64,000 nt of DNA from Candidatus Omnitrophota bacterium. Its GTDB lineage: Bacteria; Omnitrophota; Gorgyraeia; 1-14-0-20-64-10. Positions 17,092 to 46,846 of this stretch are shown one piece after another (the stretch's first letter is position 1; the number at the start of each line of letters is the position of its first letter). A model generated the notes under the pieces. It was not told the DNA's origin. It did no database searches and saw only the letters and a list, made by a program, of their open reading frames with translations. The stretch spans positions 71,079 through 135,078 of the forward strand of contig JACOVG010000024.1 in the NCBI GenBank assembly GCA_016177405.1, given 5' to 3'. A program made the position numbers and the translations under genes.

Positions 17092-18572
17092 CCCGCGACC
17101 CTTCCCATCTCGCCTCCCGAACCTTCGACCTGCTCATCGTCGGCGGCGGGATCATGGGGGCGGGGATCGCCTGGGACGCCGCGTCGCGGGGCCTCTCCTG
17201 CGCCCTGGTGGAGCAGGGGGACTTTGCCGGAGGTGCCTCCTCCAAAACCACCAAACTGATCCACGGCGGCATCCGCTACCTGGAACAGCTCGATTTCGGG
17301 CTGGTGCGCCAATCAATCCGGGAACGCGGGAGGCTTCTTCAGATCGCGCCTCATCTTGTCAAGCCGCTCCCGTTTCTGATTCCGGTTGCGGGTGATTCGC
17401 CGCGCCCTTGGCCATGGGTCTGGGCCGGCGTTACCCTGTATGATTTCCTGGCCGGGGAAAACCGCGTCCGGGCCCGCCGGTTCTTGAACGCGGGAGAAAT
17501 GACCGATGAGGAGCCGGTCCTTTCCGGGGTGCCGGCCGCGCGCGGCGCCCTTTACCACGATGCCCAGATGGACGATGCCCGGCTGGTCCTGGCAGTCCTT
17601 CAGGCCGCCCATGCCGCCGGGGCACAGGCCGTCAACCACTGCTCGGTCGTCCGTTGGATCCTGCAGGCGGGGAAGGTGAGCGGCGCCGAGGTGGAGGATC
17701 GCGTAAGCGGCAGGCGTTACACGGTGAAGGCCGGCGCCGTGGTCAACGCCGCCGGCCCCTGGGTGGATCGCTTGAGGCGTTTGGCCGATCCGGCCGCCCA
17801 GCCCATCGTTCGCCCCTCCAAGGGGATTCACCTGGTCTACCCGGATCTGGGACTGAAGCACGCCCTCCTGCTGGCGGCGCCCCAGGACCACAGGATCTTC
17901 TTTCTGATTCCCTGGCGGAATCTTACCCTGATTGGCACCACCGACACCGATTATTCCGGCGACCCGAGCCAGGCCCAGGCCGCCCCAGAGGACGTGGAGT
18001 ACCTGATGGCTCAAACCAACCGTCTCTTGCCGCGCCTGCGGCTTGAAAAGACAAAGGTGATCTCCACCTTTGCCGGTGTGCGCCCGCTCATGGCACAGGA
18101 AAAGAAGGACCCCTGGGCGGTCGGCCGGGGCCACCTGATCCACGAGGACAAGAATGGCCTAGTGAGTCTGGCTGGCGGAAAGTTCACCACCTTTAGGAGG
18201 GTCGCCGAAGAGGTGGTGGACCTCCTGGCCAAGCGTTTCCCGGAAAAGAAACTGGCTTCCTGCTGTACTGCGCGATCTCCGTTAGGTCAGGCCCTCACGC
18301 CTGGTTCTGTCCAGGCGCCGCCCCTGTGCCCCCACCATCCCTTCACCCAGGAGGATGTCCGCCGCGCAGTCCAGGAAGAGATGGCGGTCACCTTGAGCGA
18401 TCTCCTCTGGCGCCGCCTTCAGGTGGGCCATTCTCCTTGTCATGGCCTGGATGGGCTTCAGGCGGCCGCCGAGACGATGGGCGGCCTCCTGGGCTGGTCC
18501 GCGGGCGAGGTGAACCGGCAGGTGGAGCGTTATCGGCAAGAGGTAGAGGAATCCCGGTCCGCGCTTGGTTAA
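17088..18572 (+). CDS. glpD: FAD-dependent glycerol-3-phosphate dehydrogenase (GlpD/GlpA type)
   Basis: FDLLIVGGGIMGAGIAWDAASRGL dinucleotide-binding motif and KLIHGGIRYLE. The GTG start overlaps the glpK stop. Confidence 0.8.
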   Translation: MTRDPSHLASRTFDLLIVGGGIMGAGIAWDAASRGLSCALVEQGDFAGGASSKTTKLIHGGIRYLEQLDFGLVRQSIRERGRLLQIAPHLVKPLPFLIPVAGDSPRPWPWVWAGVTLYDFLAGENRVRARRFLNAGEMTDEEPVLSGVPAARGALYHDAQMDDARLVLAVLQAAHAAGAQAVNHCSVVRWILQAGKVSGAEVEDRVSGRRYTVKAGAVVNAAGPWVDRLRRLADPAAQPIVRPSKGIHLVYPDLGLKHALLLAAPQDHRIFFLIPWRNLTLIGTTDTDYSGDPSQAQAAPEDVEYLMAQTNRLLPRLRLEKTKVISTFAGVRPLMAQEKKDPWAVGRGHLIHEDKNGLVSLAGGKFTTFRRVAEEVVDLLAKRFPEKKLASCCTARSPLGQALTPGSVQAPPLCPHHPFTQEDVRRAVQEEMAVTLSDLLWRRLQVGHSPCHGLDGLQAAAETMGGLLGWSAGEVNRQVERYRQEVEESRSALG

Positions 18573-18651
18573 TATTTATATATAGCCAGATTTTGACTTG
18601 TTTTTGGCCGGCAGATCGGCCATACTTAAGGTGAAACAGTAAAATGGGATG

Positions 18652-18680
18652 CCGGGCTTAACCCGGAGCCCTTTTTCTTT
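18652..18680 (+). terminator. hairpin plus T-tract (ccggg-cttaa-cccgg agcc CTTTTTCTTT), an intrinsic-terminator-like structure 25 nt upstream of the giant ORF start
   Basis: 5-bp GC stem followed by a T-rich run. Lies between the glpD stop (18572) and the giant gene ATG (18705), downstream of an AT-rich putative promoter region (18573-18650). Confidence 0.4.
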
Positions 18681-18704
18681 CTGGGCTTCTTTGAGCCTTA
18701 AAAG

Positions 18705-21700
18705 ATGAAAAAACTACGATCGCTCATCTCGCTTGCCTTGGCGCTCCAGCTTGCCCTGCCAAACCCTGCCGGAGTTTACCCAGAGCTTAGTCGAAGGGCC
18801 CTGCGCGTTAACCAGCTAAGAGAAGACCCCGCCGGAAAGACCCTTGCCGGTTTGGAAGAAGCCCTTCAGGGGAAGATGTTTTCAACCCCGGTGCCTGGCA
18901 CCAAGATGGCTGAAGGGGCCCGGAGGCAGATGAGCCAGTTCTTCCTGGCGCTGGGAACCTTCCTGCTCCTGTGCGCCGGAGGCAGGGGCGAAGAAGCGGT
19001 TTCGCCCCCGCTTATATCTTCAGCCGGCCCGGTATCCCCTCCATCCGATTCCAGCCAGAGAGCGCGCGGCCTGCTTTCCATCGGTCGAGGGACCTACGAA
19101 GGCGTTCTGAAGTCGCCAGCCAGAAGCTGGGCGGTTGGGGAGTTTGCCGAGAGTTATGAAGAATACGAGAGGATGCTGGCCAAGTTTCCCGACCTCCCGC
19201 CCATGGTCGAAGAGGCCTTGGATTACCTGAAGGAGAACCACCCTGGGATTTATGAGCGGTACGTCTTGCCCGGGATCTCTCGAATCATCCTGGTGGAAGG
19301 GGACATCCTAACCGCTCAAGCGCTGGGAGAGGGGAATGTTCTTCTCGCGGATGCCACCGTGCGGCACCTTCACGCCATGCCCCGCCAGGATCGTCCTCGC
19401 GTTCTCGCGGGAATCTTGGCTCATGAGGCGGTCCACAATACCCATCGCCAAAGAGGGCGTTTCCCCTCCACGAAGGACGAAGAGCCGGCGGACAGCGCTC
19501 TCGCCATGGAAGAGCTCACCGCCTACCTGATTCAGGCAGCCATTCCATTTGCCGAAACCCAACGTCCTGGAGCGATTCAGCCCATGGGGTATCTCATTTT
19601 TCAGGAGGATCTCTTTGGCCTGCGGCATGTTTCCGACGGACATTGGCTTGGGCTTTTCTCCGGGTTGGTGATCGGCCAAGGCGGTCTTTTCTTTCCGGAC
19701 GAGCTGGGCAGGCCCCCGAAGGTCCTCTGGCCGCTGGCCTCTCGGAGGATTCAAGCGCTTGCAAAGATCGAGCGGATGGAGCGGCAGAGGTTTGGAGAGG
19801 AGACGGCCGTTGAATTCCTGATATTCCACAAGGGAGAGGAAGATCCGAGGGCGGTCTATGTGGAGTATCGAATCCGGGAGGTGATCTATCGGCGGAAGGT
19901 TGACGTCAGAAGAGGCGGGAGGACATCGGTTGGGAAACCTGCAGTCGTTTCAAGGGACGCGTCGGTCTTTCATCGGGAGGTTCAAGAGCCATATGAGACA
20001 AAAGGGGGACCTGCCGCGGACCCCAAGGTCCTTAGGGATCTCAAGGCCTTCTTATTGGAGGTTGCCCAGCAGTTGTCAAATGAGCCAAGGACGCCGGCCG
20101 ATCAACGCCTCCTTGAGGTCATCCGTGAGATTCAAAAAAGATTAGAACCCCCCCCGGCGCCGCCCAAGCCCACGGTGCCTGGCAGAAAAGGGCTAGAAAC
20201 CCCCACCGGGCTGGGCAGGGCGGAGACGCAGCCGCCGAACCAGCCGCGGACGTTCTGGGCGGCCCGCGGCAACGGTAAAGTTCCCTTCACCCCAACGGCC
20301 CTCACTCGTAAATCAACTCCTCCGGTGTCTGGCCCCACCGCTGGGCTGGAGGAGGGGACCTCGCTTAAGAGGCGGATGGAGATTGCCAAAGGTCATGGCG
20401 CTCTCTACATCTCATTGATCGATATCTTCTTAAGACCAGGAGATTTGGAGGAGAAAAACCAGAGGGTCGAGCAGCAGATTCGAGACCTCCCCCCCGGATT
20501 TCCGAAAAGCATGAAGGAAGGTTACCTTGAAGGATATCGGAGATTTCTAGGAGGACTTGCAGCTAACCATGCTCTTCTTGAGGATTTTAGACAAGAAGGA
20601 GTCCGCGGACTTCTTTCGCGTCTGGCCTTGAGTTTAGAGGAAGATCCAGCAAGACCTTCGATGAGGATAAAGGCTGTTCGAGGAGTGTTAGAACGGAGTT
20701 TGAGCAGGGAAATGAATGATGCGGATTATCTTCTCACCACGTTCATCGTCTCATCTGGCCTTGAGAAGAAAAAGGATATGAATGAGATCGAACTTGATCT
20801 GCAAAAAGTCTTAGCTCACCCGGTTCGTCAAGGGTCCACACGCCTTTTAGAACCGACGCGGGGTGTTCTCATCGTTGAGGTCCAGGAAGAACTCATTCGT
20901 TTGATGCAAAATCGTGGGCTGCTGCTTTGGGCAGGGGCAGCGTTTTACGTTCCAAGTGAAAGCAATCATTTACCCAATTTTATTATAGTGCCAGACAATT
21001 CTCAGCTTTGGAAAAAGGCCCTGGCAAACGAGAGATACCTTACGGATGACCCTGATGTTCGCCATGAATTTCATCACCTCGTTTGGGATCTCCTCATGCG
21101 CAGCGGGTTCTTAAGAGAAACAAAGGAATCATCGGTGGGCAGGAGTAAAGCCTTTGATGGTTTTAGAGACGAGGTTAGCGCCTATATCGTTGCTGCCAAT
21201 AAACATTTCGCGGGAGTAGAACCAAAGTTACTGAATTATCTGGAGGGGACAGGTGACCTATCCGCAGACGCTCGGAAGGCGACCCGCGATGCGAGGGATT
21301 TTTCCGCCGCCGCTATGGAGATAGCCGAACAGCTAGGCATTCCCCGTTCCGCCTTTCTCTATGCTTCCATGACAGCGAGAAATTTCTCCGAGTTAAAAAG
21401 ACTTTTTGCGGAGTTAACTCCCTTACGCAAGTTGGAAGACCTTGAGGCCTGCGGCTTGCTCTATGCCGCATGGGAGAAATTGAGATATGAAGCGGATGTA
21501 AGCAAATCCATCGGAGATCTGCTTCGGGAGAAAGGGTTACGCGTCGACCCGGCCCTCGCACAAGCGTTTGCCATCCATCACCTCCGATCAGACGAAAAGT
21601 CCTTCCAGCGGTTGGGCGAGCTGGATGAAGAGTTGGGAAGAATTGAGAAGGTCTTTGCGGCATTTGGGTCGAGGCTTCCATCTCGGGAGGGCGTCTTGGA

Positions 21701-24700
21701 AGCCGTCTTTGAAACCCGGCTCCCTCTGCCTCTTGAAACGCGCCAAACCATCCGGACGTTCTCGTTGGGCGAACGGACTGGAATCCCGCTGGGTTTGAAA
21801 CCAGAGGATTTCTTAACGTCCCTCGTCTCCTTCCTTCTCATCGATGATCCCGCCACAGGGAACAGGTTCAGAATATACCAAGCCATCGTTCGCTCTTCAC
21901 CTGTTATGCTGGCGGCCTTCCGAAAGGTTCAGGACGAGATTATTCGTAAGGGGAGTCAGGCTTACCGGATCGAGATGAAGGGGAGGGGGGCATTGGAGGC
22001 CGAGATCAAAACGATATCGGACTGGATAAAACGCTTAGGTGAACCGCCGCCAGCGTTGGACACCCCAGCGCCAGCCACCCCCGCCGGGCTGGAGAAGGTG
22101 GTGAGGGGAAATTTGGCCATGCTAAGGCAGGCGTACCCTCTTATGGAGAGTGCCGTTGTTCCTGAACCATTTGTGAGGGGAGAAAAGAACAGACCCCATC
22201 TCTATTTCGCCCTGAATGGGGCGGGGAAGATCCTCGAAATTAGACAAGATTGGGTGAGTACGGAAGATCGTGCGGCAAAATGGGTTCTGGGGCTTGCCTT
22301 ACGCTGGCCCGCCAAGGGGCCATTTCAACTCAGTACGGCTAAAAGAGATGTTGAAATTATAACGGGTCCAAGCGGCGCTGGCTACTCGAAATTGCCGAAG
22401 CTTTTTCTAGATTCAATAAAGTTGTTTAATCGGGTCCCCTATCCGTTCGCCGCCCTGACACGTTTTTCTCCCGATGAAGCCCAAAAGGAACTGGGCCAGT
22501 TCAAAGGACTGGGGAAGCTGCAGGCGGCGGAAACGTGGGTGGGACATGGCGGCACCAATAGGCGTGAAAAGATCTCGTTGGTGGATCCCCCAGGAAACCT
22601 CTGGTTTATCCATCTTAAGGACGTGATGGTTGAAAAGACGACGCGGGAAGAAAGATTTCTAGAGGGTTCTCTCTTCGTCAGGCAAAGGCAAATCTCTTTG
22701 GGTGAACTTCAGAAACTCATTGCTTCCTCTTCGCTTATCCAGAGGTTTCCCCGATCCCCCGCCGGGCTGGAGGAGGGATGGCTAAAGCGTGCTTTGAAGC
22801 GGTTTGGCTTTGTTTCAGGAAAACCGGTTCTTGAAGACAAGAAAGCGCAAGAAGGCCCACGGGCTGTTGCTGCCAGAGACCTCATTGCTAGGGGTGAGAA
22901 GCCAGAAGGCATCACCGAGGTGGTTGGTTACTTGGAGAGTGTTTTAGAAGAGGAACGGCGGAACGCCCAAATGGCTCTTACCCAGATTGCTGACGATAAG
23001 CAAAATAGCGATCCCGCCAAGGTGAACTTCCTTCGAGCCATGAACAACGCCCAGGTAGTCCAGAAGAGCGTTCCCAATCTCTTTAGGCCGGGCGTTTACC
23101 GTGCAGCTTACGATACCCTTAGAGAACTTGTCTCCTATGGAGAGTTCAATGAGGCATTCATTTCAGTGATTCCCATTTTGGCGGAGAAGCTCTCGTCTTC
23201 AGATGGGGACGTTCGCCTGCCCAGCCTAGCAGTCCTGAATTACCTTGCTGGGTTCGAGAAGTTCGCTGAGGCCATTAAGAAAGCCCGGGTACTGGAAAAG
23301 TGCCTCGCCAACCCCAACCTCTTACGCGATACGGCCAATCTCTACAGGAGACATGATGTTGAGCCGAGTATCTATCTTCTTTTCCTGAATGTGCCTGCCT
23401 ACCTTGGAACATTCAACTCCCGAGTTATCCCTCTACTGGCTGCCGGTTATTCGGATTCGGATCCATTAATCCGCAACGAGGCCAGCAGGGTTCTCCTTCG
23501 GCTTGCCCACTACCTGGAATTGTGGACAGCATACGTCACTCGAGTTATCCCCGCCATCCTGGGCAACCTTATGAATCCAGATGAATCCATCCGCGATTCG
23601 GCCAGGAGCGATCTCCTCGCTTTGGATAGCACACGCCCTTATTATCCGTTCCCCGAGGATGCCGACCTCGACGGACTTCATCAAGCAATCGTCTCCCGCA
23701 TTCCGCCTCCAGTCTTAACGGCCTACCGGCAGGCATGGTTTGATGGCAAGACGCTCAAGGCTTTGGATAATCCATTTAGGTCTGATGCGGTGAATGCGCT
23801 TAGCCAAGATATTTTTAAGAGAGACGCTGGATCGAAGGAGGAACGCCTGCTGCTTCAACTTCTTGGAGAGTTCTCTCCGGAGAAGGCCGCCGAGATCAAG
23901 AGTGTCTTGGAAAAAAGATCACGGGCACCTGGAACCGGCTTGCCAGGTGCCGCCGGGCTGGAGGAGGTGGCCGAAGAACTCAAGGGGCAGACGCTAAAGC
24001 TGCTCAACGACGTGTTTGGCGGCTCTGAAATCAAGCAGGTGACAAGGGAAGCGCTCGGGCGCCTCCAGGAAAGATTCGACAGGGCCCCAAGCGAGGAGAA
24101 GCGCGGCATCCTCGGAAGATTCTGGGAGATCTACCTGCCGTCCCTCCGCAAGCTTGCTCGACAGCGCATCCAAGAGACAGCCGCCACCGCCAGGCCCCTG
24201 CCCCCAGGCCATGTGGAGCCCTCCGTGGTCATCGTTGGACCGGCCGTGAACCTGAACCTCAACATTGGCTGGATGCCGGACCCGGAGGATTCCCAGCGGC
24301 TCGTCGTAGATCCAGGCGCGACCAGTTTGAAGGCCAACGGATCCCCAACGAACGTCATGGAGACCTTGCTGTTTCTGGGGACTCCCTTCCGGTCAATCGG
24401 CATGCGCGGAGCCGATGGGGCGCCGGTTCACCAAATATTCTTTGAGCTCCTCGGGGCCGTAGGGATTGACCCCCAGGAATGGCCCCGTGTCTCCGGGGAT
24501 GTTGATTTCGTCCCCACGATGTCCGCTGGCACGCTGGGGCTTGATTATCGCTTCATCCCGCCTCTCCCTCCCTGGAAGAATGCCGAGTTGTCGAATTACA
24601 CCGGCGCGGTGTCTCGGGTCACTGAAGAGCTCGCCACAGGGGGAAGACCGCACGGGGCCTTGGCGGTGACCAGCCGCGTTCCGGCCAACGCCCCCTCAGA

Positions 24701-27700
24701 CTTTCTCTCGCAGCTCTTTCGGATCGGGAAGAAGGGAGGCCTGTTCGTGGTCTATGATCCCAAGACGAACACCCTGGAGAATCCGGAGATCCGCAGCGCC
24801 ATCGTGGCTGAAGGACCCCACCTCATCACGCCGAACCTGGAAGAGTTCTCTGTGCTGGTCGGCCTTCCTCTCGAAGAGCTTCAGACTCCGGAGCAGATCA
24901 TCGTTGCAGCCCATCGGCTGATCGGACGGCCGAAAACCGATATCCCAATGATCCTAATTTCGCTCGGAGACAGGGGGGCTCTGCTGATCGACAAGGAGCG
25001 TGCAGCCTACGCCAACGTGCCGCCGGTTTCCGTCGTCGGCCCGGGAGGGGCAGGGGACGCCGGTCTGGCCGGTTTGTTGCGCCAATACGCCCAGACGGAG
25101 GCGTCCCAGAGGCCATTCTCCACCCTAAGGGACTCGGAGTTCCTGTCCCTGCTGCGCGCCTACGTCGCCGCTGGGGCCGCGGCGGTCCTGATGCCTGGCG
25201 ATGAGTCTCCCTTCCTGGAGGGTGTCGTTCAAATGGAGCAGCAGGTCCGAACGACGTTCTTCCGGGGAGAGCTTCCTTCAGAACATCTGGCCGGGCTTTT
25301 TACCCCAGTGGAACGCCCTACTGCCCAAAGCCCCTATCAGAACCGGGTGTGGGTACCGCGGCTGGGGCGTTTTTTCTTCGCGGATGAGGAGGTCATCTCT
25401 CCGGACAATGCCGGTTCCGACCTCTACCTGAATTTCATCCTCTCCAACCCGAGTCTCTTTAGGGATAAGACGGTTCTGGAGCCCTTCACCGGTTCCGGTG
25501 TGCTGGCGTACGCCTTGGCGTCGGTTGGGGCCACGGTGGTGGCGACGGATGTCTCTGAATCGGCGATTCGCCTCGCTGAAAGGAACCGCCAGGATTGGCC
25601 GCCGGAAATCCGGGGCCGGGTGACGTTCGGGATCAGCGATGTCTATGGCAATCTGTGGAGAATCACCGCTCTACGTGAATTCGATGTGATGATTGGCAAC
25701 AATCCCACCCAGAGGCAGGATCCTCTGCCTGGGGATGGGGCCTCCTACATGACAAGTGCCGGCGAGCATTTTGAAGTCATCCGGGAGGCCATCACCGGGC
25801 TCGCTGTCCTGCTTAAGCCTGGCGGCAGCGCCTATTTGCAGACCCGTGTTGTTCAGGAGCAGGAGGAACCTCTGCGCCGGCTGACAGCCGAACACCTCAA
25901 GGAGAAACTCCTTCCAGAGGGGTGGGATCTTGAGCCGACCAGCTACGAGGGGATGGGCAGGACCGAGTTGATTCCGCTTGTGATTAACCGCATCTTCCGC
26001 ACCCCCGCCGGGTTGGAAGAGGAGGAGGCGGGTGGACGGGTGAGGGGATGGGCTTTGTCGCTGATTGGCCGCCTGTTTCAATTCCCGAGTCGGCTTGTGA
26101 CAGAGCGGAAACTCATGAAGATCCTGAAAAATCCCAACGATAACCCGTACGAACGACGTTTGGATGCCTTGGAAGTCGTTTCTATCACAGGGGACAAGAG
26201 GTTGCGCGCCAAGTGGGATTCTTCTCCTGGCTGGGATTTGAGTTATCGGGAAGCGGTAATAAAGCACTTGGCCAGGATGGGAAGCAAGAAGCTCGTGCCC
26301 CTGCTTAGGGAAATCCTTCAGGATCCAAAGACAGAAACTGCGGCTGGCGTGGTGGCAGCAAGGGAGATGATCGATTTGGGGGCCACGGACGTGGCGGTTG
26401 CGTACCTTGGTCAGGCGGTGGGGAAAGAAGAAATCCCCCCGCAGAGTCATGAGGATGTTATCAAGGCGTTATGGAAAGAAGAAATCTCGCCGCTGGATTA
26501 TGAGAATGTTATCAGGGCGCTGGGGAAAGCTGGGGGAACCGCGGCGGTGGGGTACCTTGGCAAGGTGGCGGAGAAACTGTGGCTGGGCGATGGCTCGCCC
26601 AGCTACTGGGCGCTTGAGGCACTGGGAAGGATCGGCAGCCAAGAGGCCTTGGACCGCTTAAGGGGATTTGCATCGCACCACAAGGTACAGCTCCTTCGAT
26701 TCATGGCGCAAACTGTGCTGACGGAAATTGAAAATCCGAAGAGGGCGATTCCCTCTCTGAAACAACTGATGTTGGATTCAAGGGTTCCCAATGAATTTAA
26801 GGCCACCGTTCTGGAAAGGATTGCGGAAGGCGGCTCCCCCGACGGGATTGCCTTCGTGGGAGAAATGGCCAGGGATTTGAAGATCACCTCTTTGCGGGAT
26901 AAGGCGGTTGAAGGCCTGGTCAAGAATGGCAGCCCCCAGGCGGTTGGAGAGCTCGCGGAGGTATTGAGGGTTGAGGATGGGATCTCCTCTTTCTGGGCCA
27001 GCACCCTGGAGGGCCTTGCGACGATAAAAACGCCCGAAGCGGTAGCTCTTTTAGGCAGACTGGCAACGGATAAGGGAATGCTGGTTCTTTCCAGGAGTAA
27101 AGTGATTGACCTCTTGCTCAAGGTGGAGAGCCGGCACGCCATACCGCATTTGGCTAAGTTGGCGCAGGAGGAGGGAGAGAACGTCCTCCTGCATGGTGAC
27201 AAGCAAGCTGCCGCTCTAAGACTCATAGAGATCGGCGGCGATGAGGCGCTTCCATACCTTAAGCAAATTGCCAGGAATGGCTGGTCTTGGACTTTGGCCA
27301 TACAGGGGCTTGGAGAAATGGGCGGCGTGGAGGGGCTTGATTTCCTGGCCAGGTTAGCCGTCGATAAAGAGGTTGACCCCAAGAGAAAGGAACGGGCCCT
27401 TTTTCAACTTGCCGATGTGAGCTCTCCCGAAGCGCTCGATTGGTTGAGAAGGGTAGCCATGGATCCTGATCAAGATCCCACCCTGCAAGCTGCGGCGATG
27501 TCGGCCTTGATGCGCGTAATTCCGAGGTCTCTTCCTTATCTGCTCGGTGGGTTGCTGGTTGCGGATGACGAAGGGATTCCATTGGCCATGTTACGGCGGT
27601 TCTCAAAGAAAGATATCCTGGCGGCGGTCAGCCGTGGTTCTCCCGGGCCAGAGAAACTTCTTTGGCTGCCCCCTGTCGGCAGCAAGGTGCCTGTGGCGCT

Positions 27701-28964
27701 GAGGAAAGAAGCGGGGGGGATGAAAAGCGACAATCTCGGCGTCTTCGGAACACACCTCACCGCTGAGGGACAGTTGAGGAGGATGAAGGACATTGTAAAC
27801 GTACTCGGGGCACAAAACATACACCAGATGACGGTACAGGGCCGCCTGACAGACCCCTTTAAATATGTGGCTGCCCTCCTCATTCTTGCAACCCCCACGC
27901 AGTTCATGAACCTGGAGGCAATAGGCACAGGCACCGATAGCTGGAAAACGTGGCTTCAGATTGGGCCTCTTGTCCACGACGGGCTTCAAGCCAACAAGCC
28001 GATCAACCCTCTGTGGGGTAACGAGGGCCGCACCGATTTTCTCCTTCTCATGACGCCAGAGGAGGTCCAATTGGCAGAGGGCTACCCGATCAAGCTTAAG
28101 GCCTATCAGCGATTGGCGTTGGCGCTTCACGCGGCCCAGGGGACGGTTCCAAGCCAAATGCCCAAACAGCTTCGGGAGAGGCTGGCCGATGTCTGGCGAG
28201 AATTTGTGCAAGAAGCGGATAAGCTGCTTGTGGAAAGTTACGCGAAGCCGGCGGTGGAGCTTCCATGGTTTTCAGAAGGCGCGGACTCCAAGGGACATCC
28301 TTTGAGCGCCTACGGTAAGCGGCAAGAGGCGGACTGGGGTCCCATCCAGCAGGCCTTCCTTCGCGCCAGAGAGAAGATTCTGGATGGGGCCCAGACGGAT
28401 GAAGAGAAAATGGCGGTACTCTACGGGGTTGTCGGGCCATCTTTGGGACTCCTGGCGAGATTCTCGAAGAGGGTAGACCAGGTCCTGGGGGTCTCTATGC
28501 CCCAGCCGGCCGTTCCACCGTCCCCCGCAGGGTTGGAGGAGGCGCGGGAGGCGGCGGCGAGGGAGCGGTTGGATGGGATGAGGTCGGCGGCGCTGACCTT
28601 GGACTGGGTGGTGATTGGAAAGAGAGTTGCGGGACAGTTTCCCGGGCTTGAGCAGTTGGCTGGGCTGGAGGAACGGATTTTAATCGATGGGGATGATCCA
28701 GCAGAGACGGCCTTTAAACTGATTCAGCGGGGCGCCGCTTGGGGCGATCGGGTGACCTTCTTTGGCGGCTTGGAAGAAGGGGAGAAGCTTACCTTTGTGG
28801 CCAGAGATGCCGGGCTTACGTTTCAGATCGTTGGTCTTAAGGAGCAGGGTTTTTCCATTCAGCTTCGGCAGATCTTGGCGGGTCTTGGGATTCCGGACGC
28901 GGCGATTGCGGCTGGTCTCGAGGAGATGGCCGCCGACCTGACCTTCCTAGGCCAAGCGGCTTGA
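18705..28964 (+). CDS. giant (3419 aa) secreted multidomain protein. Contains a signal peptide, a HEAVH motif, a second HEFHH motif, a PfkB/ribokinase-like kinase domain, a class-I SAM-methyltransferase-like domain and PBS-lyase HEAT repeats. Punctuated by nine (P/A)AGLEE motifs
   Basis: Single uninterrupted 10,260-nt ORF with no competing frames. N-terminal MKKLRSLISLALALQLALP signal. HEAVH at nt 19422-19436. PfkB motifs LITPNLEEF...VVGPGGAGDAGLAGLL (~24650-25100). MTase motif I LEPFTGSGVLAYA, ATDVSE and IGNNPTQ (~25460-25760). Repeated ALGxxGxxxAVxxL HEAT units (26100-27500). AGLEE motifs at nt 18846, 20337, 22080, 22758, 23949, 26004, 28524, 28663 and 28906. Confidence 0.75.
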   Translation: MKKLRSLISLALALQLALPNPAGVYPELSRRALRVNQLREDPAGKTLAGLEEALQGKMFSTPVPGTKMAEGARRQMSQFFLALGTFLLLCAGGRGEEAVSPPLISSAGPVSPPSDSSQRARGLLSIGRGTYEGVLKSPARSWAVGEFAESYEEYERMLAKFPDLPPMVEEALDYLKENHPGIYERYVLPGISRIILVEGDILTAQALGEGNVLLADATVRHLHAMPRQDRPRVLAGILAHEAVHNTHRQRGRFPSTKDEEPADSALAMEELTAYLIQAAIPFAETQRPGAIQPMGYLIFQEDLFGLRHVSDGHWLGLFSGLVIGQGGLFFPDELGRPPKVLWPLASRRIQALAKIERMERQRFGEETAVEFLIFHKGEEDPRAVYVEYRIREVIYRRKVDVRRGGRTSVGKPAVVSRDASVFHREVQEPYETKGGPAADPKVLRDLKAFLLEVAQQLSNEPRTPADQRLLEVIREIQKRLEPPPAPPKPTVPGRKGLETPTGLGRAETQPPNQPRTFWAARGNGKVPFTPTALTRKSTPPVSGPTAGLEEGTSLKRRMEIAKGHGALYISLIDIFLRPGDLEEKNQRVEQQIRDLPPGFPKSMKEGYLEGYRRFLGGLAANHALLEDFRQEGVRGLLSRLALSLEEDPARPSMRIKAVRGVLERSLSREMNDADYLLTTFIVSSGLEKKKDMNEIELDLQKVLAHPVRQGSTRLLEPTRGVLIVEVQEELIRLMQNRGLLLWAGAAFYVPSESNHLPNFIIVPDNSQLWKKALANERYLTDDPDVRHEFHHLVWDLLMRSGFLRETKESSVGRSKAFDGFRDEVSAYIVAANKHFAGVEPKLLNYLEGTGDLSADARKATRDARDFSAAAMEIAEQLGIPRSAFLYASMTARNFSELKRLFAELTPLRKLEDLEACGLLYAAWEKLRYEADVSKSIGDLLREKGLRVDPALAQAFAIHHLRSDEKSFQRLGELDEELGRIEKVFAAFGSRLPSREGVLEAVFETRLPLPLETRQTIRTFSLGERTGIPLGLKPEDFLTSLVSFLLIDDPATGNRFRIYQAIVRSSPVMLAAFRKVQDEIIRKGSQAYRIEMKGRGALEAEIKTISDWIKRLGEPPPALDTPAPATPAGLEKVVRGNLAMLRQAYPLMESAVVPEPFVRGEKNRPHLYFALNGAGKILEIRQDWVSTEDRAAKWVLGLALRWPAKGPFQLSTAKRDVEIITGPSGAGYSKLPKLFLDSIKLFNRVPYPFAALTRFSPDEAQKELGQFKGLGKLQAAETWVGHGGTNRREKISLVDPPGNLWFIHLKDVMVEKTTREERFLEGSLFVRQRQISLGELQKLIASSSLIQRFPRSPAGLEEGWLKRALKRFGFVSGKPVLEDKKAQEGPRAVAARDLIARGEKPEGITEVVGYLESVLEEERRNAQMALTQIADDKQNSDPAKVNFLRAMNNAQVVQKSVPNLFRPGVYRAAYDTLRELVSYGEFNEAFISVIPILAEKLSSSDGDVRLPSLAVLNYLAGFEKFAEAIKKARVLEKCLANPNLLRDTANLYRRHDVEPSIYLLFLNVPAYLGTFNSRVIPLLAAGYSDSDPLIRNEASRVLLRLAHYLELWTAYVTRVIPAILGNLMNPDESIRDSARSDLLALDSTRPYYPFPEDADLDGLHQAIVSRIPPPVLTAYRQAWFDGKTLKALDNPFRSDAVNALSQDIFKRDAGSKEERLLLQLLGEFSPEKAAEIKSVLEKRSRAPGTGLPGAAGLEEVAEELKGQTLKLLNDVFGGSEIKQVTREALGRLQERFDRAPSEEKRGILGRFWEIYLPSLRKLARQRIQETAATARPLPPGHVEPSVVIVGPAVNLNLNIGWMPDPEDSQRLVVDPGATSLKANGSPTNVMETLLFLGTPFRSIGMRGADGAPVHQIFFELLGAVGIDPQEWPRVSGDVDFVPTMSAGTLGLDYRFIPPLPPWKNAELSNYTGAVSRVTEELATGGRPHGALAVTSRVPANAPSDFLSQLFRIGKKGGLFVVYDPKTNTLENPEIRSAIVAEGPHLITPNLEEFSVLVGLPLEELQTPEQIIVAAHRLIGRPKTDIPMILISLGDRGALLIDKERAAYANVPPVSVVGPGGAGDAGLAGLLRQYAQTEASQRPFSTLRDSEFLSLLRAYVAAGAAAVLMPGDESPFLEGVVQMEQQVRTTFFRGELPSEHLAGLFTPVERPTAQSPYQNRVWVPRLGRFFFADEEVISPDNAGSDLYLNFILSNPSLFRDKTVLEPFTGSGVLAYALASVGATVVATDVSESAIRLAERNRQDWPPEIRGRVTFGISDVYGNLWRITALREFDVMIGNNPTQRQDPLPGDGASYMTSAGEHFEVIREAITGLAVLLKPGGSAYLQTRVVQEQEEPLRRLTAEHLKEKLLPEGWDLEPTSYEGMGRTELIPLVINRIFRTPAGLEEEEAGGRVRGWALSLIGRLFQFPSRLVTERKLMKILKNPNDNPYERRLDALEVVSITGDKRLRAKWDSSPGWDLSYREAVIKHLARMGSKKLVPLLREILQDPKTETAAGVVAAREMIDLGATDVAVAYLGQAVGKEEIPPQSHEDVIKALWKEEISPLDYENVIRALGKAGGTAAVGYLGKVAEKLWLGDGSPSYWALEALGRIGSQEALDRLRGFASHHKVQLLRFMAQTVLTEIENPKRAIPSLKQLMLDSRVPNEFKATVLERIAEGGSPDGIAFVGEMARDLKITSLRDKAVEGLVKNGSPQAVGELAEVLRVEDGISSFWASTLEGLATIKTPEAVALLGRLATDKGMLVLSRSKVIDLLLKVESRHAIPHLAKLAQEEGENVLLHGDKQAAALRLIEIGGDEALPYLKQIARNGWSWTLAIQGLGEMGGVEGLDFLARLAVDKEVDPKRKERALFQLADVSSPEALDWLRRVAMDPDQDPTLQAAAMSALMRVIPRSLPYLLGGLLVADDEGIPLAMLRRFSKKDILAAVSRGSPGPEKLLWLPPVGSKVPVALRKEAGGMKSDNLGVFGTHLTAEGQLRRMKDIVNVLGAQNIHQMTVQGRLTDPFKYVAALLILATPTQFMNLEAIGTGTDSWKTWLQIGPLVHDGLQANKPINPLWGNEGRTDFLLLMTPEEVQLAEGYPIKLKAYQRLALALHAAQGTVPSQMPKQLRERLADVWREFVQEADKLLVESYAKPAVELPWFSEGADSKGHPLSAYGKRQEADWGPIQQAFLRAREKILDGAQTDEEKMAVLYGVVGPSLGLLARFSKRVDQVLGVSMPQPAVPPSPAGLEEAREAAARERLDGMRSAALTLDWVVIGKRVAGQFPGLEQLAGLEERILIDGDDPAETAFKLIQRGAAWGDRVTFFGGLEEGEKLTFVARDAGLTFQIVGLKEQGFSIQLRQILAGLGIPDAAIAAGLEEMAADLTFLGQAA

Positions 28965-28974
28965 TCCCTTTGAC

Positions 28975-29880
28975 TTAGCCGGTGCCGAGGACGTGCCGGA
29001 GGGTCCAGTCCAGGCGCGGATAGATGAAGGGGTAGCCGGTGGATTTCAGGCGAGCCGAGACCGCCCGCTGGCTGGCCAGAAGCAAGGCATCGGCCATCTC
29101 GCCGAAGGCCAGCCTGGCCGCGAAGGCCGGCAGGGGAAAAAGGGCCGGCCGCCACAAGACCCTTCCCAGGGTCTTGGTGAACTCCCGGTTGGTGACCGGG
29201 TTGGGGGAGACGATGTTCACCGGCCCCTGGATCTGCTCGATCACGATCGCGTGAAGGATGGCCCCCACCGCGTCGTCCAGGGCGACCCAGCTCATGTACT
29301 GCCTGCCCGATCCGATGGTGCCTCCCAGGCCCAGCCGAAAGGGGAAGGTCATCACCGGCAGGGCCCCGCCGGCAGCGCCCAGCACCATCCCGAAGCGAAG
29401 ATTCACCACCCGGATTCCTGCCTGTGACGCCGGCTGGGTGGCGGCCTCCCAGGCTTGGCCCACCTCCGCCAGAAAGCCGCTTCCCGCCGGGCTGTCCTCG
29501 TTGAGTGTCTCGTCCCCGCGGCTGCCGTAGATGCCGACCGCCGAGGCGCTTAAGAAAACGGCCGGGGGTTTCTTCAGTTTGGGGAGCGATTCCGAGAGGA
29601 ATTGGGTTGCCTGAACCCGGCTGGTTCTGATGAGCTCCTTTTTGGCGGGGGTCCAGCGGCCCTTGGCGATGTTGTCGCCGGCCAAATGGATGAGGGCGTC
29701 AAGCCCCTCCAGCTTATCCAGATCGATTTTCTCCGCGGCCGGATCCCAGAAGGCCGTTCCTTCCTGGTTTTGAGCGGGTGCCCGGATGAGGCGGATGACC
29801 TCGTGGCGCCTCTGATGGATGAGGAAGTTGGCGAGGGCCGAGCCGACGAACCCGCTCGAGCCTGTCAGGGCGATGCGCAT
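28975..29880 (-). CDS. TIGR01777/YfcH-family NAD-dependent epimerase-like protein (DUF1731 C-terminal)
   Basis: MRIALTGSSGFVGSAL Rossmann N-terminus, 301 aa, YfcH-like architecture. The minus-strand ORF does not overlap neighbouring genes. Confidence 0.7.
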   Translation of the reverse strand: MRIALTGSSGFVGSALANFLIHQRRHEVIRLIRAPAQNQEGTAFWDPAAEKIDLDKLEGLDALIHLAGDNIAKGRWTPAKKELIRTSRVQATQFLSESLPKLKKPPAVFLSASAVGIYGSRGDETLNEDSPAGSGFLAEVGQAWEAATQPASQAGIRVVNLRFGMVLGAAGGALPVMTFPFRLGLGGTIGSGRQYMSWVALDDAVGAILHAIVIEQIQGPVNIVSPNPVTNREFTKTLGRVLWRPALFPLPAFAARLAFGEMADALLLASQRAVSARLKSTGYPFIYPRLDWTLRHVLGTG

Positions 29881-29954
29881 GGGGCAGATTGTAGCAGGAG
29901 GGATGCTATAATCGCAACTGGCGGCTGTACCCTAAGAGACCATGGAGGGACGGA

Positions 29955-30983
29955 ATGAAAGCGATCGCGTTTGATCATCACGGCGGCGTGGAGGTCCTCA
30001 AATACCTGGAGGTTCCGGCTCCCAGGATGGGGGAGGACGAGGCCCTCATTGAGGTGGAGGCCTGCGGCATCAACCATCTGGATCTCTGGACCCGGCAGGG
30101 TTTGCCAGGCGTTCAGGTTCCCATGCCGCACATCTTGGGCTGTGAGGTGGTGGGGAAGGTGGCCAAGGTTGGAGCCAAGGTCACCCACGTGAAGAAGGGG
30201 GACCGGGTTTTGGCGGCGCCGGGGATAAGCTGCGGCTCCTGCCCGGCCTGCCAGGGCGGCCGCGACAGCCTCTGCCGGGAATTCAAGATCATGGGTCTTC
30301 AGCGGGACGGCGGCTACGCCGAAATGGTGTCGGCTCCGGGCAAGAACCTGATTCCGGTTTCTTCCAAGCTTAAGCCGGAGGAGTGGGCGGCCGTGCCGCT
30401 GGTTTTTGTCACCGCGTGGCACATGCTGGTGACCCGGGCCGGGCTCAAGGCCGGCGAATCGGTGCTCATCCATGCCGGCGGCTCCGGCGTGGGCTCGGCC
30501 GCCATTCAGGTGGCCCGGCTTTCCGGGGCCACCGTCTTCGCGACGGTCGGCTCGGATGAGAAGCTGAAGAAGGCGAAGGCGCTGGGGGCCCACTGGGTGA
30601 TCAACTACAACAGGCGGGATTTTCCCGAGGAGGTTCAGCGCCTCACCGAGGGCCGCGGGGTGGACGTTGTCTTCGAGCACATCGGCCCGGCCACCTGGCG
30701 CGGCAGTATGAAATGCCTGGCCCGGGGCGGGCGGCTGGTCACCTGCGGGGCGACCACCGGCCCCCTGGTGGAGCTAGATCTTCGCTTCTTCTTCACCCGC
30801 GAGCTTTCGGTGATGGGCTGCTACATGGGGGGCCGCCGGGAGCTGGACCAGGTGCTGGGGCTGGCGGCGGAGGGCCGGCTGAAGCCGGTGGTGGACACCG
30901 TCTTCCCGCTCAAGGAGGCCGCCCGGGCCCAAGCGGTGATGCAAAGCAGAAACTTCTTCGGCAAGCTCGTCCTGAAGGTTTAG
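29955..30983 (+). CDS. zinc-binding alcohol dehydrogenase / quinone oxidoreductase family (MDR)
   Basis: GINHLDLW, GCEVVGKV and a GGSGVGSAAIQ NAD(P) motif. Length 342 aa. Confidence 0.8.
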   Translation: MKAIAFDHHGGVEVLKYLEVPAPRMGEDEALIEVEACGINHLDLWTRQGLPGVQVPMPHILGCEVVGKVAKVGAKVTHVKKGDRVLAAPGISCGSCPACQGGRDSLCREFKIMGLQRDGGYAEMVSAPGKNLIPVSSKLKPEEWAAVPLVFVTAWHMLVTRAGLKAGESVLIHAGGSGVGSAAIQVARLSGATVFATVGSDEKLKKAKALGAHWVINYNRRDFPEEVQRLTEGRGVDVVFEHIGPATWRGSMKCLARGGRLVTCGATTGPLVELDLRFFFTRELSVMGCYMGGRRELDQVLGLAAEGRLKPVVDTVFPLKEAARAQAVMQSRNFFGKLVLKV

Positions 30984-30985
30984 CA

Positions 30986-31774
30986 ATGCACGTCATCGCG
31001 GTGGCCAGCGGCAAAGGGGGTGTCGGGAAAACCACCGTGGCCGTGAACGTCGCCTGCGCTCTGGCCAAGGGCGGCGCCAAGGTGGGCCTGTTGGATGCCG
31101 ACATCACCGGCCCCAACGTTCCCCTCATGATGGGTCTGTCGGCCTTGCCGCCGCTTCAAGAGGGGCGGATCGTTCCGGCGGAGAATTTTGGGGTGAAGGT
31201 CATGTCGATGGGTTTCCTGGTGAAGCCGGGCGAGGCGGTGATCTGGCGGGGGCCGATGCTTCATGGAGCGATCAACAAGTTCTTGAAGGAGGTTCTCTGG
31301 GGGGAACTGGATTACCTCTTGTGCGATCTGCCGCCTGGGACCTCGGACATTCAGCTCACCCTCTCGCAGTCCATTCCGATGGCTGGGGCGCTTATCGTCA
31401 CCACGCCGCAGGAGGTTGCTCTGCAGGATGTCCGTAAGGCGATCGCCATGTTCGAGAAGGTCAAGGTTCCCCTCCTGGGGGTGGTGGAGAACATGTCCGG
31501 CTTCGTTTGCTCCCACTGCGGCAAGACCACCGACATCTTTGACCGGGGCGGGGGCCGGCGCTGGGCGCAGGAATTGAAGATCCCGTTCCTGGCCGCGGTG
31601 CCTCTGGTCCCGAAGATCCGGGAGGGCAGCGATCAGGGGCGTCCCATCGTCTTGACCGATCCGGAGTCTCCGGCGGCGGCCGCCTTTGGGCAGGCGGCGA
31701 AGAACCTAGCGGCCCAGGTGAATGCCGCGGCCGCCGCTTCCACCGGTCCAAGCGGCCCTGTTTGGAAAGTGTGA
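30986..31774 (+). CDS. apbC: Fe-S cluster carrier ATPase Mrp/ApbC (NBP35 family)
   Basis: A SGKGGVGKTT deviant Walker A and a CxxC (CSHCGK) motif. The true start is an internal ATG. The G/P-rich N-terminal extension of the listed ORF is an artefact. Confidence 0.85.
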   Translation: MHVIAVASGKGGVGKTTVAVNVACALAKGGAKVGLLDADITGPNVPLMMGLSALPPLQEGRIVPAENFGVKVMSMGFLVKPGEAVIWRGPMLHGAINKFLKEVLWGELDYLLCDLPPGTSDIQLTLSQSIPMAGALIVTTPQEVALQDVRKAIAMFEKVKVPLLGVVENMSGFVCSHCGKTTDIFDRGGGRRWAQELKIPFLAAVPLVPKIREGSDQGRPIVLTDPESPAAAAFGQAAKNLAAQVNAAAAASTGPSGPVWKV

Positions 31775-33575: not shown

Positions 33576-33865
33576 ATGAAAAAACGCAAGATTTACATTG
33601 ATACCGGCGGCCTGACCTGTCCGAAGAAGAGGTCCCAGGAGTTCTTGAGGGCTCTTTTGGACGCCCTCCGGAAGGCCGGGTTGGAGCAGGCGGTCCAAGT
33701 GATCCCCCGCGGGTGCTTTGGTTTGTGCAACCTGGCCCCGAATCTTTACATCGAGCCGGACGGCCTCTGGTACTCTCGCTTCACCGTGAAGGATATCCCG
33801 GAGATTGTTCAGTCACATTTGATTGGCGGCCAACCGGTTACGCGGTTGATCCACTACAAAAAGGG

Positions 33866-33869
<4 letters not shown>
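33576..33869 (+). CDS. thioredoxin-like [2Fe-2S] ferredoxin (NuoE-like fold)
   Basis: CPKK...[22 protein letters not shown]. Lies immediately upstream of nuoBCD, and its stop overlaps the nuoBCD start. Confidence 0.6.
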
Positions 33870-36177
<2,308 letters not shown>

Positions 36178-36181
<4 letters not shown>

Positions 36182-44878: not shown

Positions 44879-45554
44879 GCTGGTCTTTTCTGGGGAGATG
44901 AAGGAAGGGGTCTACCGGGCGATCTACGGCCGCAGGGACATCCGTTCGCAGTTTATGCCGGAGCCCATCCCGGACGAGGTGCTCCTGCGGATTCTCCGCG
45001 CGGCCCATCACGCCCCTTCCGTCGGGTTCATGCAGCCCTGGAACTTTATTGTGATCGAGGACGCGGCGGCCCGTAGGGAGGTCAAGGAGTCCTTCGAGAA
45101 GGCCCACGCCGCCGCGAAGCAGCTCTTCCCGGAGCCCAAGCGCGCGGTCTACGGCTCCTTCAAACTGGAGGGGATCCTGGAGTCGCCTGTGAATGTCTGC
45201 GTTACGTGCGACCGGAGCCGGTTTGGCCCCGTGGTGATCGGCCGCACCTGCCAGCGTGAGATGGACCTCTACAGCGCGGTCTGCGCGGTGCAGAACCTGT
45301 GGCTGGCGGCGCGGGCGGAAGGGGTGGGCGTGGGCTGGGTCAGCATCGTCTATCCAAAGGACCTGAAGCGGATCCTGCGTCTCCCCTCCCAGGTGGTGCC
45401 CATCGCCTACCTGTGCCTCGGGTACGTGACGCATTTCCCGGAGGAGCCGGAGCTGCAGAAGGCGGGGTGGCTGCCGCGGCTGGCGCTTAAGGAGGTTGTC
45501 TTCACCGAACGCTGGGGTGACCGGACCGGCAGAATCTGCCAGGCGCTGGAGTGA
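44862..45554 (+). CDS. bluB: 5,6-dimethylbenzimidazole synthase BluB (nitroreductase family)
   Basis: VYRAIYGRRDIRSQFMPEPIPDEVLLRILRAAHHAPSVGFMQPWNF is very close to the BluB signature. Length 230 aa. Confidence 0.7.
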   Translation: MPGTDELVFSGEMKEGVYRAIYGRRDIRSQFMPEPIPDEVLLRILRAAHHAPSVGFMQPWNFIVIEDAAARREVKESFEKAHAAAKQLFPEPKRAVYGSFKLEGILESPVNVCVTCDRSRFGPVVIGRTCQREMDLYSAVCAVQNLWLAARAEGVGVGWVSIVYPKDLKRILRLPSQVVPIAYLCLGYVTHFPEEPELQKAGWLPRLALKEVVFTERWGDRTGRICQALE

Positions 45555-46477
45555 CGGTGGCGCCTCATCGGTTACAGGTATTTCTTATAGGGTGCGCTGC
45601 GCTCTTTTTTGCGTCGGGGTCTTACGCGCGGGAAGAACACAAACCGCTTCCGCCGCGCCCATTCTATTTCGTCCAAGATTCCAAGGGGCAGAACCACTCC
45701 TTTGGCCTTCGAGCGGCTGAAGATGGAAGGCTTACCTTAGAGGATGGATCCGGAAGATCCCTTGAGATGGTTCCTGACCCCAAGCGGCTTTTTGGAGCGG
45801 CCTTTTATCAGGATGAAAACAGTCTGGTGGCCATCGAAACGGACGGCACGGTTTTGTGGTATGGCGAGGAAAGCGGTATCTTTCAGCTAAAGAATAAGCG
45901 GTCCGTCGAATATCCGGCCAGCGTATTGAACGTCTTCTTCACTCGGGTTCCGGGTCTTGTTTATCTCCTTCTGGAGGATACCCAGGAGGCTGACCGGTTG
46001 AGGAACTCTCCCGAACAATCCTACGCGGATCGATATGGCCGGATTACCCTGCAGACTTCAGCCGAAGGCTGGCACGCGATTCCGGCGGAAGAGTTGACGC
46101 CGTCGTTTCTGACCGGCTGTTACACGATGGCTGGCAAGAAGGTGACTGTGAGCCTGCGAGAGGACGAGAGGATTGAGCTCTCCCTTCCGGAGCCCTTGGA
46201 TGAGCCGTTTAGATCCGGCCCTTACGATCCCCTGGCCGAGGCCATCTTTGTTTTTCCAAAAGAGGGAATCGTCTGTAAAACCCAAAAGGGCTGGTCATTG
46301 CATCGGATGGATGGCTCCCTGGTGAAGTGGTTCTCCGCAGAGGGGATAGAGGCTTTCTGGTGGGAAGAACCCACCGTAAAAGAGGGCAGTTTCTTTATCC
46401 ACTCTCGTACCGGGTACGGCGGCGGCACTTTCAAGCTGGATGCAGACTCCGGAACCCTTATCCGAACCGAGGATTAA
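45551..46477 (+). CDS. hypothetical secreted protein (signal peptide), on a low-GC island
   Basis: N-terminal hydrophobic signal ending ASGSYA. ~52% GC, against ~65% in the flanks. No recognisable motifs. Confidence 0.4.
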   Translation: MTVAPHRLQVFLIGCAALFFASGSYAREEHKPLPPRPFYFVQDSKGQNHSFGLRAAEDGRLTLEDGSGRSLEMVPDPKRLFGAAFYQDENSLVAIETDGTVLWYGEESGIFQLKNKRSVEYPASVLNVFFTRVPGLVYLLLEDTQEADRLRNSPEQSYADRYGRITLQTSAEGWHAIPAEELTPSFLTGCYTMAGKKVTVSLREDERIELSLPEPLDEPFRSGPYDPLAEAIFVFPKEGIVCKTQKGWSLHRMDGSLVKWFSAEGIEAFWWEEPTVKEGSFFIHSRTGYGGGTFKLDADSGTLIRTED

Positions 46478-46598
46478 CCTCTTGCCAGCGCGTAAAACCG
46501 TACCGTTTCCGGGAGTGCCGGGTTTCGAACTGCGGACCCGGCGCGTTTGGAACTGGTATCTAAATATATGAGGGGATTCCGAAATTATCGGAGGGAAA

Positions 46599-46775: not shown

Positions 46776-46846
46776 CGTGACGCGTAACCTGTCCCCTTGG
46801 TACCCGGTACCGTTAGCTCCCGTACTGTGGTGCTGAGGACCGCCGC

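Follow-up and report, generated by a model that had tools for sequence, protein, structure and literature searches.

A giant multi-module gene with recurring AGLEE joints and uneven base composition in a Candidatus Omnitrophota bacterium

Introduction

What makes base composition change several times along a single open reading frame (ORF)? The question is raised by a giant ORF in a 64,000-nucleotide stretch of DNA from a Candidatus Omnitrophota bacterium (assembly GCA_016177405.1, contig JACOVG010000024.1, positions 71,079 to 135,078 of the forward strand; hereafter the window). An original prediction, made from the letters alone, described two GC-poor segments within this ORF, placed the transitions close to a recurring pentapeptide, AGLEE, and proposed that the gene was assembled from modules of different evolutionary origin or that its modules are under different codon constraints. 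Uneven composition in a long accessory gene is by itself ordinary. Of more use is that the modules of the giant protein are marked by one exact pentapeptide, and that the same layout, with other motifs, is found in other groundwater lineages. In the best-supported reading the gene would encode a secreted multi-module protein, would have been built or rebuilt by in-frame exchange at or near the joints between modules, and would use AGLEE as a processing site. We give this reading a probability of about one half.

Results

Modules and joints of the giant protein

The giant protein appears to be a beads-on-a-string arrangement of about seven unrelated modules joined by AGLEE, and its leader predicts secretion. 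The features are as follows (aa, amino acids; GC3, GC content at third codon positions).

18705-28964, plus strand: giant ORF, 3419 aa; GC 56.8%, GC3 0.63 (flanking genes about 63-64% GC, GC3 0.84)
18705-18845, plus strand: N-terminal leader (aa 1-47), MKKLR followed by a hydrophobic stretch, ending at the first AGLEE
18846-18860, plus strand: first AGLEE, boundary between leader and module 1
18861-20339, plus strand: module 1 (aa 53-545), GC3 0.67, with a proline-rich linker at its end
20340-20354, plus strand: joint 1/2, TAGLEE
20355-22082, plus strand: module 2 (aa 551-1126), of an HExxH...E...Y family, with HEFHH at 21063-21077 and RDEVSAY at 21165-21185
20496-21239, plus strand: deepest composition trough (aa 598-845; GC3 0.42, fourfold-site GC 0.46), within module 2 and taking in its HExxH core
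22083-22097, plus strand: joint 2/3, PAGLEK
22098-22760, plus strand: module 3 (aa 1132-1352), an orphan, GC3 0.55
22761-22775, plus strand: joint 3/4, PAGLEE
22776-23951, plus strand: module 4 (aa 1358-1749), HEAT/ARM-like with weak repeat hits, GC3 0.56
23952-23966, plus strand: joint 4/5, AAGLEE; the strongest GC3 step and the end of homology to a relative, P0073
23967-26006, plus strand: module 5 (aa 1755-2434), GC3 0.73, the most host-like module; its N-terminal part lacks annotation
26007-26021, plus strand: joint 5/6, PAGLEE, with a weak GC3 fall
26022-28526, plus strand: module 6 (aa 2440-3274), GC3 0.65; HEAT repeats at about 26112-27554, then an unannotated C-terminal domain
28527-28541, plus strand: joint 6/7, PAGLEE
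28542-28961, plus strand: C-terminal tail, or module 7 (aa 3280-3419, 140 aa), with AGLEE at 28659, GGLEE at 28764 and AGLEE at 28911

A blastp self-comparison detected no similarity among the modules and no internal protein repeats, and the giant protein has no set of multiple transmembrane segments. The leader looks like a signal peptide. AGLEE occurs 8 times in the protein (0.023 expected) and the relaxed form [AG]GLE[EK] 10 times (0.07 expected). Six motifs lie between large segments, most of them after proline-rich stretches, and four of these six read [TS]-P-AGLE[EK]. In an AlphaFold model of module 2, the linker before the next joint is of low confidence, and GLEE forms the start of the module's first helix. 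Literature searches for “AGLEE” returned nothing relevant.

What do the modules encode? Module 1 contains HEAVH (19422-19436) and EELTAY (19509-19526), with the same HExxH...ExxAY spacing as module 2. Neither module 1 nor a second ORF in the window, 6702-9005, gave a significant match in profile comparisons with the module 2 family, although the HExxH...ExxAY residues line up in module 1. In module 5, a PfkB-type kinase domain (24534-25250) is predicted from its ribokinase-like fold and its GAGD motif (25047-25058; aa 2115-2118). It scores 56.9 bits against PF00294 (cut-off 25.8), with only positions 133-272 of the 302 in the profile covered, and its relatives in PDB include 2abq and 3uqe. The same module holds a putative class I S-adenosylmethionine (SAM)-dependent methyltransferase (25359-25940), which has a Rossmann-like domain and the GxGxG SAM-binding motif (FTGSG, aa 2261-2265), scores 28.7 bits against PF13847 (cut-off 27), and reads NNPT rather than NPPY at motif IV. 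Among defence-library profiles, the closest to this methyltransferase is PADLOC mad2, of a methylation-associated defence system (E = 8.8e-18). The HEAT repeats of module 6 contain a tandem 51-nucleotide duplication (26413-26514, 80% identity) that encodes two 17-residue units, KEEIPPQSHEDVIKALW and KEEISPLDYENVIRALG. The end of the tail resembles the C-terminus of P0073 by eye.

The joints are alike in DNA as well as in protein. A direct repeat of 21-26 nucleotides, with the consensus CCCCCGCCGGGCTGGAGGAGG, is common to the six internal joints. If as many as 3 mismatches are allowed, the window has 7 copies (0.04 expected): those at the six joints and one at the C-terminus of ORF 6702-9005. 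Joint codons are rich in GC3 (27 of 30), and their likeness to one another is 0.686, against 0.356 expected from the gene's own usage (P = 5e-5); with host usage as the reference, for which 0.484 is expected, the likeness is only modestly in excess (P = 0.017).

Two other readings of the DNA were considered and not adopted. A Chi-site reading of GCTGGAGG is not separable from a preference for Leu-Glu-Glu codons on the main coding strand, and internal translation starts at the joints are not borne out, since the Shine-Dalgarno-like GGAGG has no consistent in-frame start codon after it. In the window GCTGGAGG occurs 19 times (5.6 expected), 16 of them on the plus strand. Among strand-skewed octamers, the related words TGGAGGAG and GGAGGAGG are the most frequent, and Leu-Glu-Glu words are the commonest octamers of the window.

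Base composition along the giant gene

Measured GC contents bear out the direction of the changes in the original prediction and correct their size. The parts described as GC-rich, at 62-65%, had been put 2-4 points too high; they have 60.0% (18705-20300), 61.5% (24000-26000) and 59.6% (27900-28964), with 63-64% in the flanks. Segment 20400-23900, given as 45-52%, has 51.9% (44.7-57.3% in 300-nucleotide windows). Segment 26100-27500, given as 50-53%, has 55.4% and had thus been put 2-5 points too low.

We located GC3 change points by binary segmentation on a log-likelihood ratio (LLR), for which permutation gave a 95% limit of 5.25 and a maximum of 9.4 in 200 permutations. The proposal depended on GC3 being non-uniform in a windowed calculation, and it is: there are change points at aa 598/605 (LLR 11.5-20.6), aa 846 (9.1) and aa 1749 (14.8-18.6). 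Permutation excludes chance as the source of the GC3 blocks.

Do the steps fall on the joints? The step at aa 1749, with support over aa 1704-1777, lies on the AGLEE at aa 1750-1754; across joint 4/5, GC3 rises from 0.55 to 0.75 (p = 4e-5, comparing the 200 codons before with the 200 after). Near 20340, GC3 begins to fall about 45-60 codons past AGLEE. The support interval of this fall, aa 590-610, leaves the motif outside, and a start at AGLEE itself scores worse by 6 log-likelihood units. Module 2 also contains the rise at aa 846. At 26004 the step is weak, from 0.72 to 0.65 (p = 0.16; best LLR 7.3, interval aa 2146-2536). Transitions had been placed near the AGLEE motifs at 20337, 23949 and 26004; that at 23949 stands, whereas the first begins past the motif and the last is weak.

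To what extent does the gene differ from its surroundings? The background was taken from 36 neighbouring genes, which gave 83 windows of 200 codons. Background GC3 is 0.836 ± 0.042 with a minimum of 0.74, and the modules of the giant ORF, at 0.54-0.73, are all under that minimum. The “high-GC ends” of the original prediction are therefore not host-like, and the whole giant gene, not merely two segments of it, is atypical for its genome. Codon adaptation to the usage of the neighbours is low throughout (z from -2.2 to -4.8). Modules 2, 3+4 and 6 stand out by an extreme raw tetranucleotide distance (z 7-13); for modules 1 and 5 it is close to normal. The composition blocks do not map one-to-one onto the modules.

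Module 2 belongs to an uncharacterised family in low-GC genomes

With aa 550-1749 as the query, phmmer run exhaustively against 1.84 billion cluster representatives returned only 80 hits, nearly all on module 2. The relatives are either stand-alone proteins of about 520 aa or modules in longer proteins (1,274-3,938 aa). In a 28-sequence alignment, G174, H241, E242, H245, E277 and Y281 (module numbering) are invariant. The AlphaFold model built on this alignment (predicted local distance difference test, pLDDT, 89.8; predicted template modelling score, pTM, 0.87) has a small sheet, then the HExxH helix (237-253), and then a Glu-bearing helix (265-283). This is the gluzincin-type pattern, in which the Glu of the second helix would be the third zinc ligand. 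Compared with the PolyVal-clade zincins, the order of secondary structures fits a zincin core, with no match in Pfam and no fold match in PDB; no NCBIfam model matches the family either.

Where is the family found? A scan of GTDB species-representative genomes with a 6-sequence alignment yielded nine loci. By their labels, most are in Patescibacteria or its candidate phyla (Saccharibacteria, Microgenomates, Doudnabacteria), one is in Elusimicrobia, one in Gammaproteobacteria, and two are unclassified. The Microgenomates carrier genome is named NC_groundwater_..._Ag. The family genes in these loci have 39-48% GC and a GC3 of 0.27-0.46, and the carrier genomes in Patescibacteria and Elusimicrobia have 35-50% GC. 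The trough of the giant gene, at GC3 0.42, is inside the range of the family. Stand-alone homologues have a uniform GC3 along their length, with no trough in the N-terminal half; therefore the trough in the window's copy is not inherent in the family. Searches of 50,697 phage and 72,556 plasmid records gave no match to module 2.

Related giant and AGLEE-bearing proteins

A word-indexed search with the whole giant protein matched only the query itself, and no close relatives of the giant gene were found in the GTDB genomes or JGI metagenomes scanned. One AGLEE-bearing relative, P0073 (400 aa), is on contigs of 2.4-3.0 kb from two runs with neighbouring accession numbers. It aligns only with aa 1663-1754 of the giant protein (nucleotides 23691-23966, the last 90 residues of module 4) at 43% identity. 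The homology runs through AGLEE, after which the sequences are unrelated; the break is at joint 4/5, the site of the strongest composition step. A scan with the alignment of the giant protein and P0073 gave no matches. The P0073 contig has 57% GC, and its genes have a GC3 of 0.61-0.70 (giant gene mean, 0.63). On this contig (L002, 1-2984) an upstream ORF overlaps P0073 by 11 nucleotides in another frame, near GLGLEPE; a frameshift or an assembly error may have divided what is really a single gene. Downstream, on the other strand, is a Fic-domain gene.

Are exact joint motifs peculiar to AGLEE proteins? Two other giant proteins with module-2-like units, P0004 and P0024, were examined by an unbiased count of repeated short peptides. 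In P0004, DRLML occurs 3 times against 0.002 expected; in P0024, DRAM and DAAM occur 3 times each (D[RA]AM[TM]). The P0024 motifs separate HPr-like, protein-kinase and TPR regions and two module-2-like copies. The module-2-like units begin about 12 residues past the motif, as in the window's protein. P0004 (gene L013, 8001-13394) carries the Pfam domain ART-PolyVal and a methyltransferase, and GC3 in its gene falls from 0.47 to 0.27 at the motif after its module-2-like unit (p = 3e-5).

The joint codons of P0024, from a genome of 44% GC, are rich in GC3 (25 of 29, where the gene has 0.46; P = 7e-6) and unusually similar to one another (P = 0.004). At the DNA level, the joints of these unrelated giant genes give the impression of having been copied or homogenised, and repeated conversion at joints is one possible reading of joint codons that are both GC3-rich and alike. 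In the P0024 gene (L014, 5001-16817), three joints share an identical 15-mer, CCGACCGCGCCATGA, and the codons at eight joints end in G or C. In P0004, two of the linkers that precede DRLML are identical at 41 of 48 nucleotides.

A smaller candidate member of the AGLEE set is in the window itself.

6702-9005, plus strand: ORF of 767 aa with no Pfam or NCBIfam family; GC3 0.74, under background

Its leader is laid out like that of the giant protein (a signal-like start, ETGLEEAL, and an RR-plus-hydrophobic stretch). The protein also bears HEWVH and ends in GGLEEASEKGLEE (GGLEE...GLEE), and a junction-type 21-mer lies at 8923-8943, at its C-terminal end. These features make it a probable small member of the AGLEE set.

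Genomic neighbourhood

The genes that flank the giant ORF are, by their annotations, ordinary chromosomal or housekeeping genes. Upstream are an FGGY-family sugar kinase (glycerol-kinase-like), an FAD oxidoreductase of the glycerol-3-phosphate dehydrogenase type, and thioredoxin-reductase-like and short-chain dehydrogenase genes. Downstream, the opposite strand carries an NAD-dependent epimerase, and a zinc alcohol dehydrogenase is also found on this side. There are no tRNA genes in the window. The intergenic region before the giant ORF (18573-18704) is AT-rich; only about 30 nucleotides 5' of the ATG it has a terminator-like hairpin (18652-18671) and, after it, a run of T. There is no clear Shine-Dalgarno sequence before the start. 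Promoter-like and terminator-like signals are not in excess inside the giant ORF.

Elsewhere in the window, a single 822-aa ORF (33713-36181, plus strand) fuses the 20-kDa, 30-kDa and 49-kDa subunits of complex I (NuoB, NuoC, NuoD), and could serve for taxonomic placement of the organism. A second low-GC patch (45551-47392) contains two ORFs without a Pfam family, 45551-46477 (GC3 0.62) and 46847-47392 (GC3 0.41). It is flanked by host-like genes and is directly upstream of a MiaB-type radical-SAM gene (47413-48804).

Discussion

Origin of the composition blocks

We favour exchange of modules at the joints. Modules, or parts of modules, would be swapped in frame at or near AGLEE. The segments would thus differ in their source and in the time they have spent in this genome, which would give rise to the composition blocks. 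The blocks fit such a history, together with a foreign or accessory status of the gene. The same motif would act on the protein, as a processing site at which a polyprotein is cleaved, plausibly between G and L, by its own predicted zincin-like modules, so that separate enzymes are released outside the cell. A cut there is plausible in view of the preference of thermolysin-type metallopeptidases for a hydrophobic residue after the cleaved bond. We infer processing by the embedded modules from this preference, from the recurrence of the exact motif at linker ends, and from the proposal that zincins process polyvalent proteins (PMC5512222).

Modules of different evolutionary origin, as originally predicted, are indicated by the unrelatedness of the modules that meet at AGLEE, by the low-GC family of module 2, and by the coincidence of the GC3 step with the break in P0073 homology at joint 4/5. 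That proposal is only partly supported, because the blocks do not follow the modules one-to-one: the trough begins and ends inside one module, the whole gene is atypical, and the anomaly is mainly synonymous.

Several observations weigh against exchange at the joints. Two of the three significant GC3 change points (aa ~605 and 846) are within module 2 and not at joints, the joints at aa 1127, 1353, 2435 and 3275 have no significant GC3 step, and the joints of P0024 are likewise without composition steps. The fractions of FYMINK and GARP amino acids are inside the background range for every module, and the GC-normalised dinucleotide signature of the modules is host-like (z <= 1.7); therefore the anomaly is mainly at synonymous sites. 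Host-like amino acids and dinucleotides are unexpected for recent imports from very low-GC donors. P0073 is the only relative that documents a break at a joint, a single case. Module 2 is only 24-37% identical to its low-GC homologues, too little to point to a donor, and its fold has no match among the solved structures in PDB. The exhaustive phmmer search (1.84 billion cluster representatives) found no relatives of module 3, searches found no homologues of module 1 or of the C-terminal tail, and a single-sequence structure model of module 1 is of low confidence (pLDDT 55). Finally, the likeness of the joint DNA partly reflects host-preferred Leu-Glu-Glu codons.

Could the whole gene have been acquired once, from a relative of moderately lower GC (about 55-57%), with the blocks arising later by local amelioration, mutation or selection? 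We consider this unlikely, and still the strongest of the alternatives. It would account for a gene that is atypical as a whole and not in two segments only, for an amino-acid composition and dinucleotide signature that are uniform and host-like, and for two change points within a module; the sole AGLEE-bearing relative, P0073, is on a contig of 57% GC whose genes are near the giant-gene mean in GC3. It does not readily account for a sharp 20-point GC3 step exactly at the joint where P0073 homology ends, nor for the like step in P0004 at its own joint motif. The GC3 of the trough, moreover, is far under any value for a donor of 57% GC and within the composition range of the low-GC lineages that bear module 2.

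Less likely again is a gene of one origin in which the blocks reflect differing codon constraints. These could arise from the speed of translation, from pauses for folding, or, in a 10-kb gene that is seldom expressed, from weak selection or weak GC-biased conversion. An anomaly almost wholly at synonymous sites, with GC3 and fourfold-site GC shifted and amino acids host-like, is what such constraints would leave, and joint codons are host-preferred and GC3-rich where module interiors are not. However, the stand-alone homologues of module 2 have no intrinsic trough in the N-terminal half, the step at aa 1749 is abrupt, and GC3 is lowest in the predicted enzymatic core of module 2 and highest in module 5, which is also enzymatic.

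An assembly from a single public run by another pipeline contains a 13,873-nucleotide contig that is 100% identical to 17805-31677 of the window, spans all AGLEE joints and both flanks, and encodes the identical giant protein. A neighbouring run accession, SRR12113421, belongs to groundwater from Modesto, California (PMC11549363); to judge by the adjacent run numbers, the window would come from that project as well. Although the metagenomic source and the composition steps could hint at pieces of different organisms joined in silico, such a chimera, which would have undone the original prediction, is extremely improbable: this independently assembled contig agrees across every joint, the reading frame stays open over 10.3 kb as first described, the homology of one family continues unbroken through aa 605 and aa 846, two of the change points, and a k-mer assembler would probably not be misled by junction repeats so short (<=26 nucleotides) and so imperfectly matched.

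With exchange at the joints as the best-supported reading, it is tempting to go one step further. AGLEE, DRLML and D[RA]AM[TM] might be lineage-specific joint signals of undescribed, widespread motif-delimited bacterial polyproteins, each at once a cut point and a swap anchor, and the joint codons might be the footprint of repeated gene conversion. We regard this extension as tentative, possible rather than probable. The recurring motifs are in any event explicit, testable candidate cut sites. They also offer a simple rule by which giant proteins can be split into units for structure prediction and for tracing the movement of modules between genomes.

Comparison with known systems

How does the giant protein relate to multi-module proteins already described? 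In the polyvalent proteins of phages and conjugative elements, zincin domains have been proposed to process multi-effector chains into separate units (Iyer, Burroughs, Anand, de Souza and Aravind 2017; PMC5512222). Like those proteins, the giant protein is a very long chain of unrelated enzymatic and scaffold domains that include a methyltransferase and an HExxH zincin-like domain. Its predicted domains are a PfkB kinase, a class I methyltransferase, HEAT repeats and two HExxH modules. The likeness extends to P0004, the giant protein that bears a module-2-like unit together with ART-PolyVal. The differences are in setting and layout. A search of PMC5512222 by terms turned up no single recurring pentapeptide at every joint. 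The giant ORF is among chromosomal housekeeping genes and has a signal-peptide-like leader; the scanned neighbours, the absence of tRNA genes from the window, and the searches of phage and plasmid collections, which gave no match, do not point to a mobile element. No PolyVal-type Pfam family is listed for the giant protein.

MARTX toxins are secreted proteins of 3,500-5,000 aa with variable effector modules, which differ among strains by recombination and are released by cuts in the inter-module linkers next to Leu. The way of working that we propose for the giant protein would be similar, with modules released at linkers. Unlike MARTX, the candidate protease is a predicted zincin-like module; Pfam and NCBIfam scans of the giant protein found no RTX repeats and no cysteine protease domain, and there are no type I secretion genes among its scanned neighbours.

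Polymorphic toxins have demarcation motifs of their own, VENN in CdiA and PxxxxDPxGL in Rhs. There, too, a short conserved peptide marks a change in homology and base composition and is the point at which cassettes are swapped. The giant protein differs in having many joints and not one. Scans of it found no filamentous or Rhs repeat core, and the adjacent gene is the epimerase on the other strand, with no immunity gene.

Giant proteins have also been described in Omnitrophota and other groundwater bacteria; for these, cleavage is reported to be suspected, with cut points that are not known (bioRxiv 10.1101/2023.11.21.568195). They share with the window's protein great length, many domains, groundwater hosts and embedded peptidase domains (10.1101/2023.11.21.568195). 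The window's protein differs in being ten-fold shorter, in lacking multiple transmembrane segments, and in having an explicit candidate motif for cut and joint. It is best described as a secreted multi-module protein in the manner of the polyvalent proteins or the MARTX toxins, yet the defining features of both are absent from the genes and scans examined.

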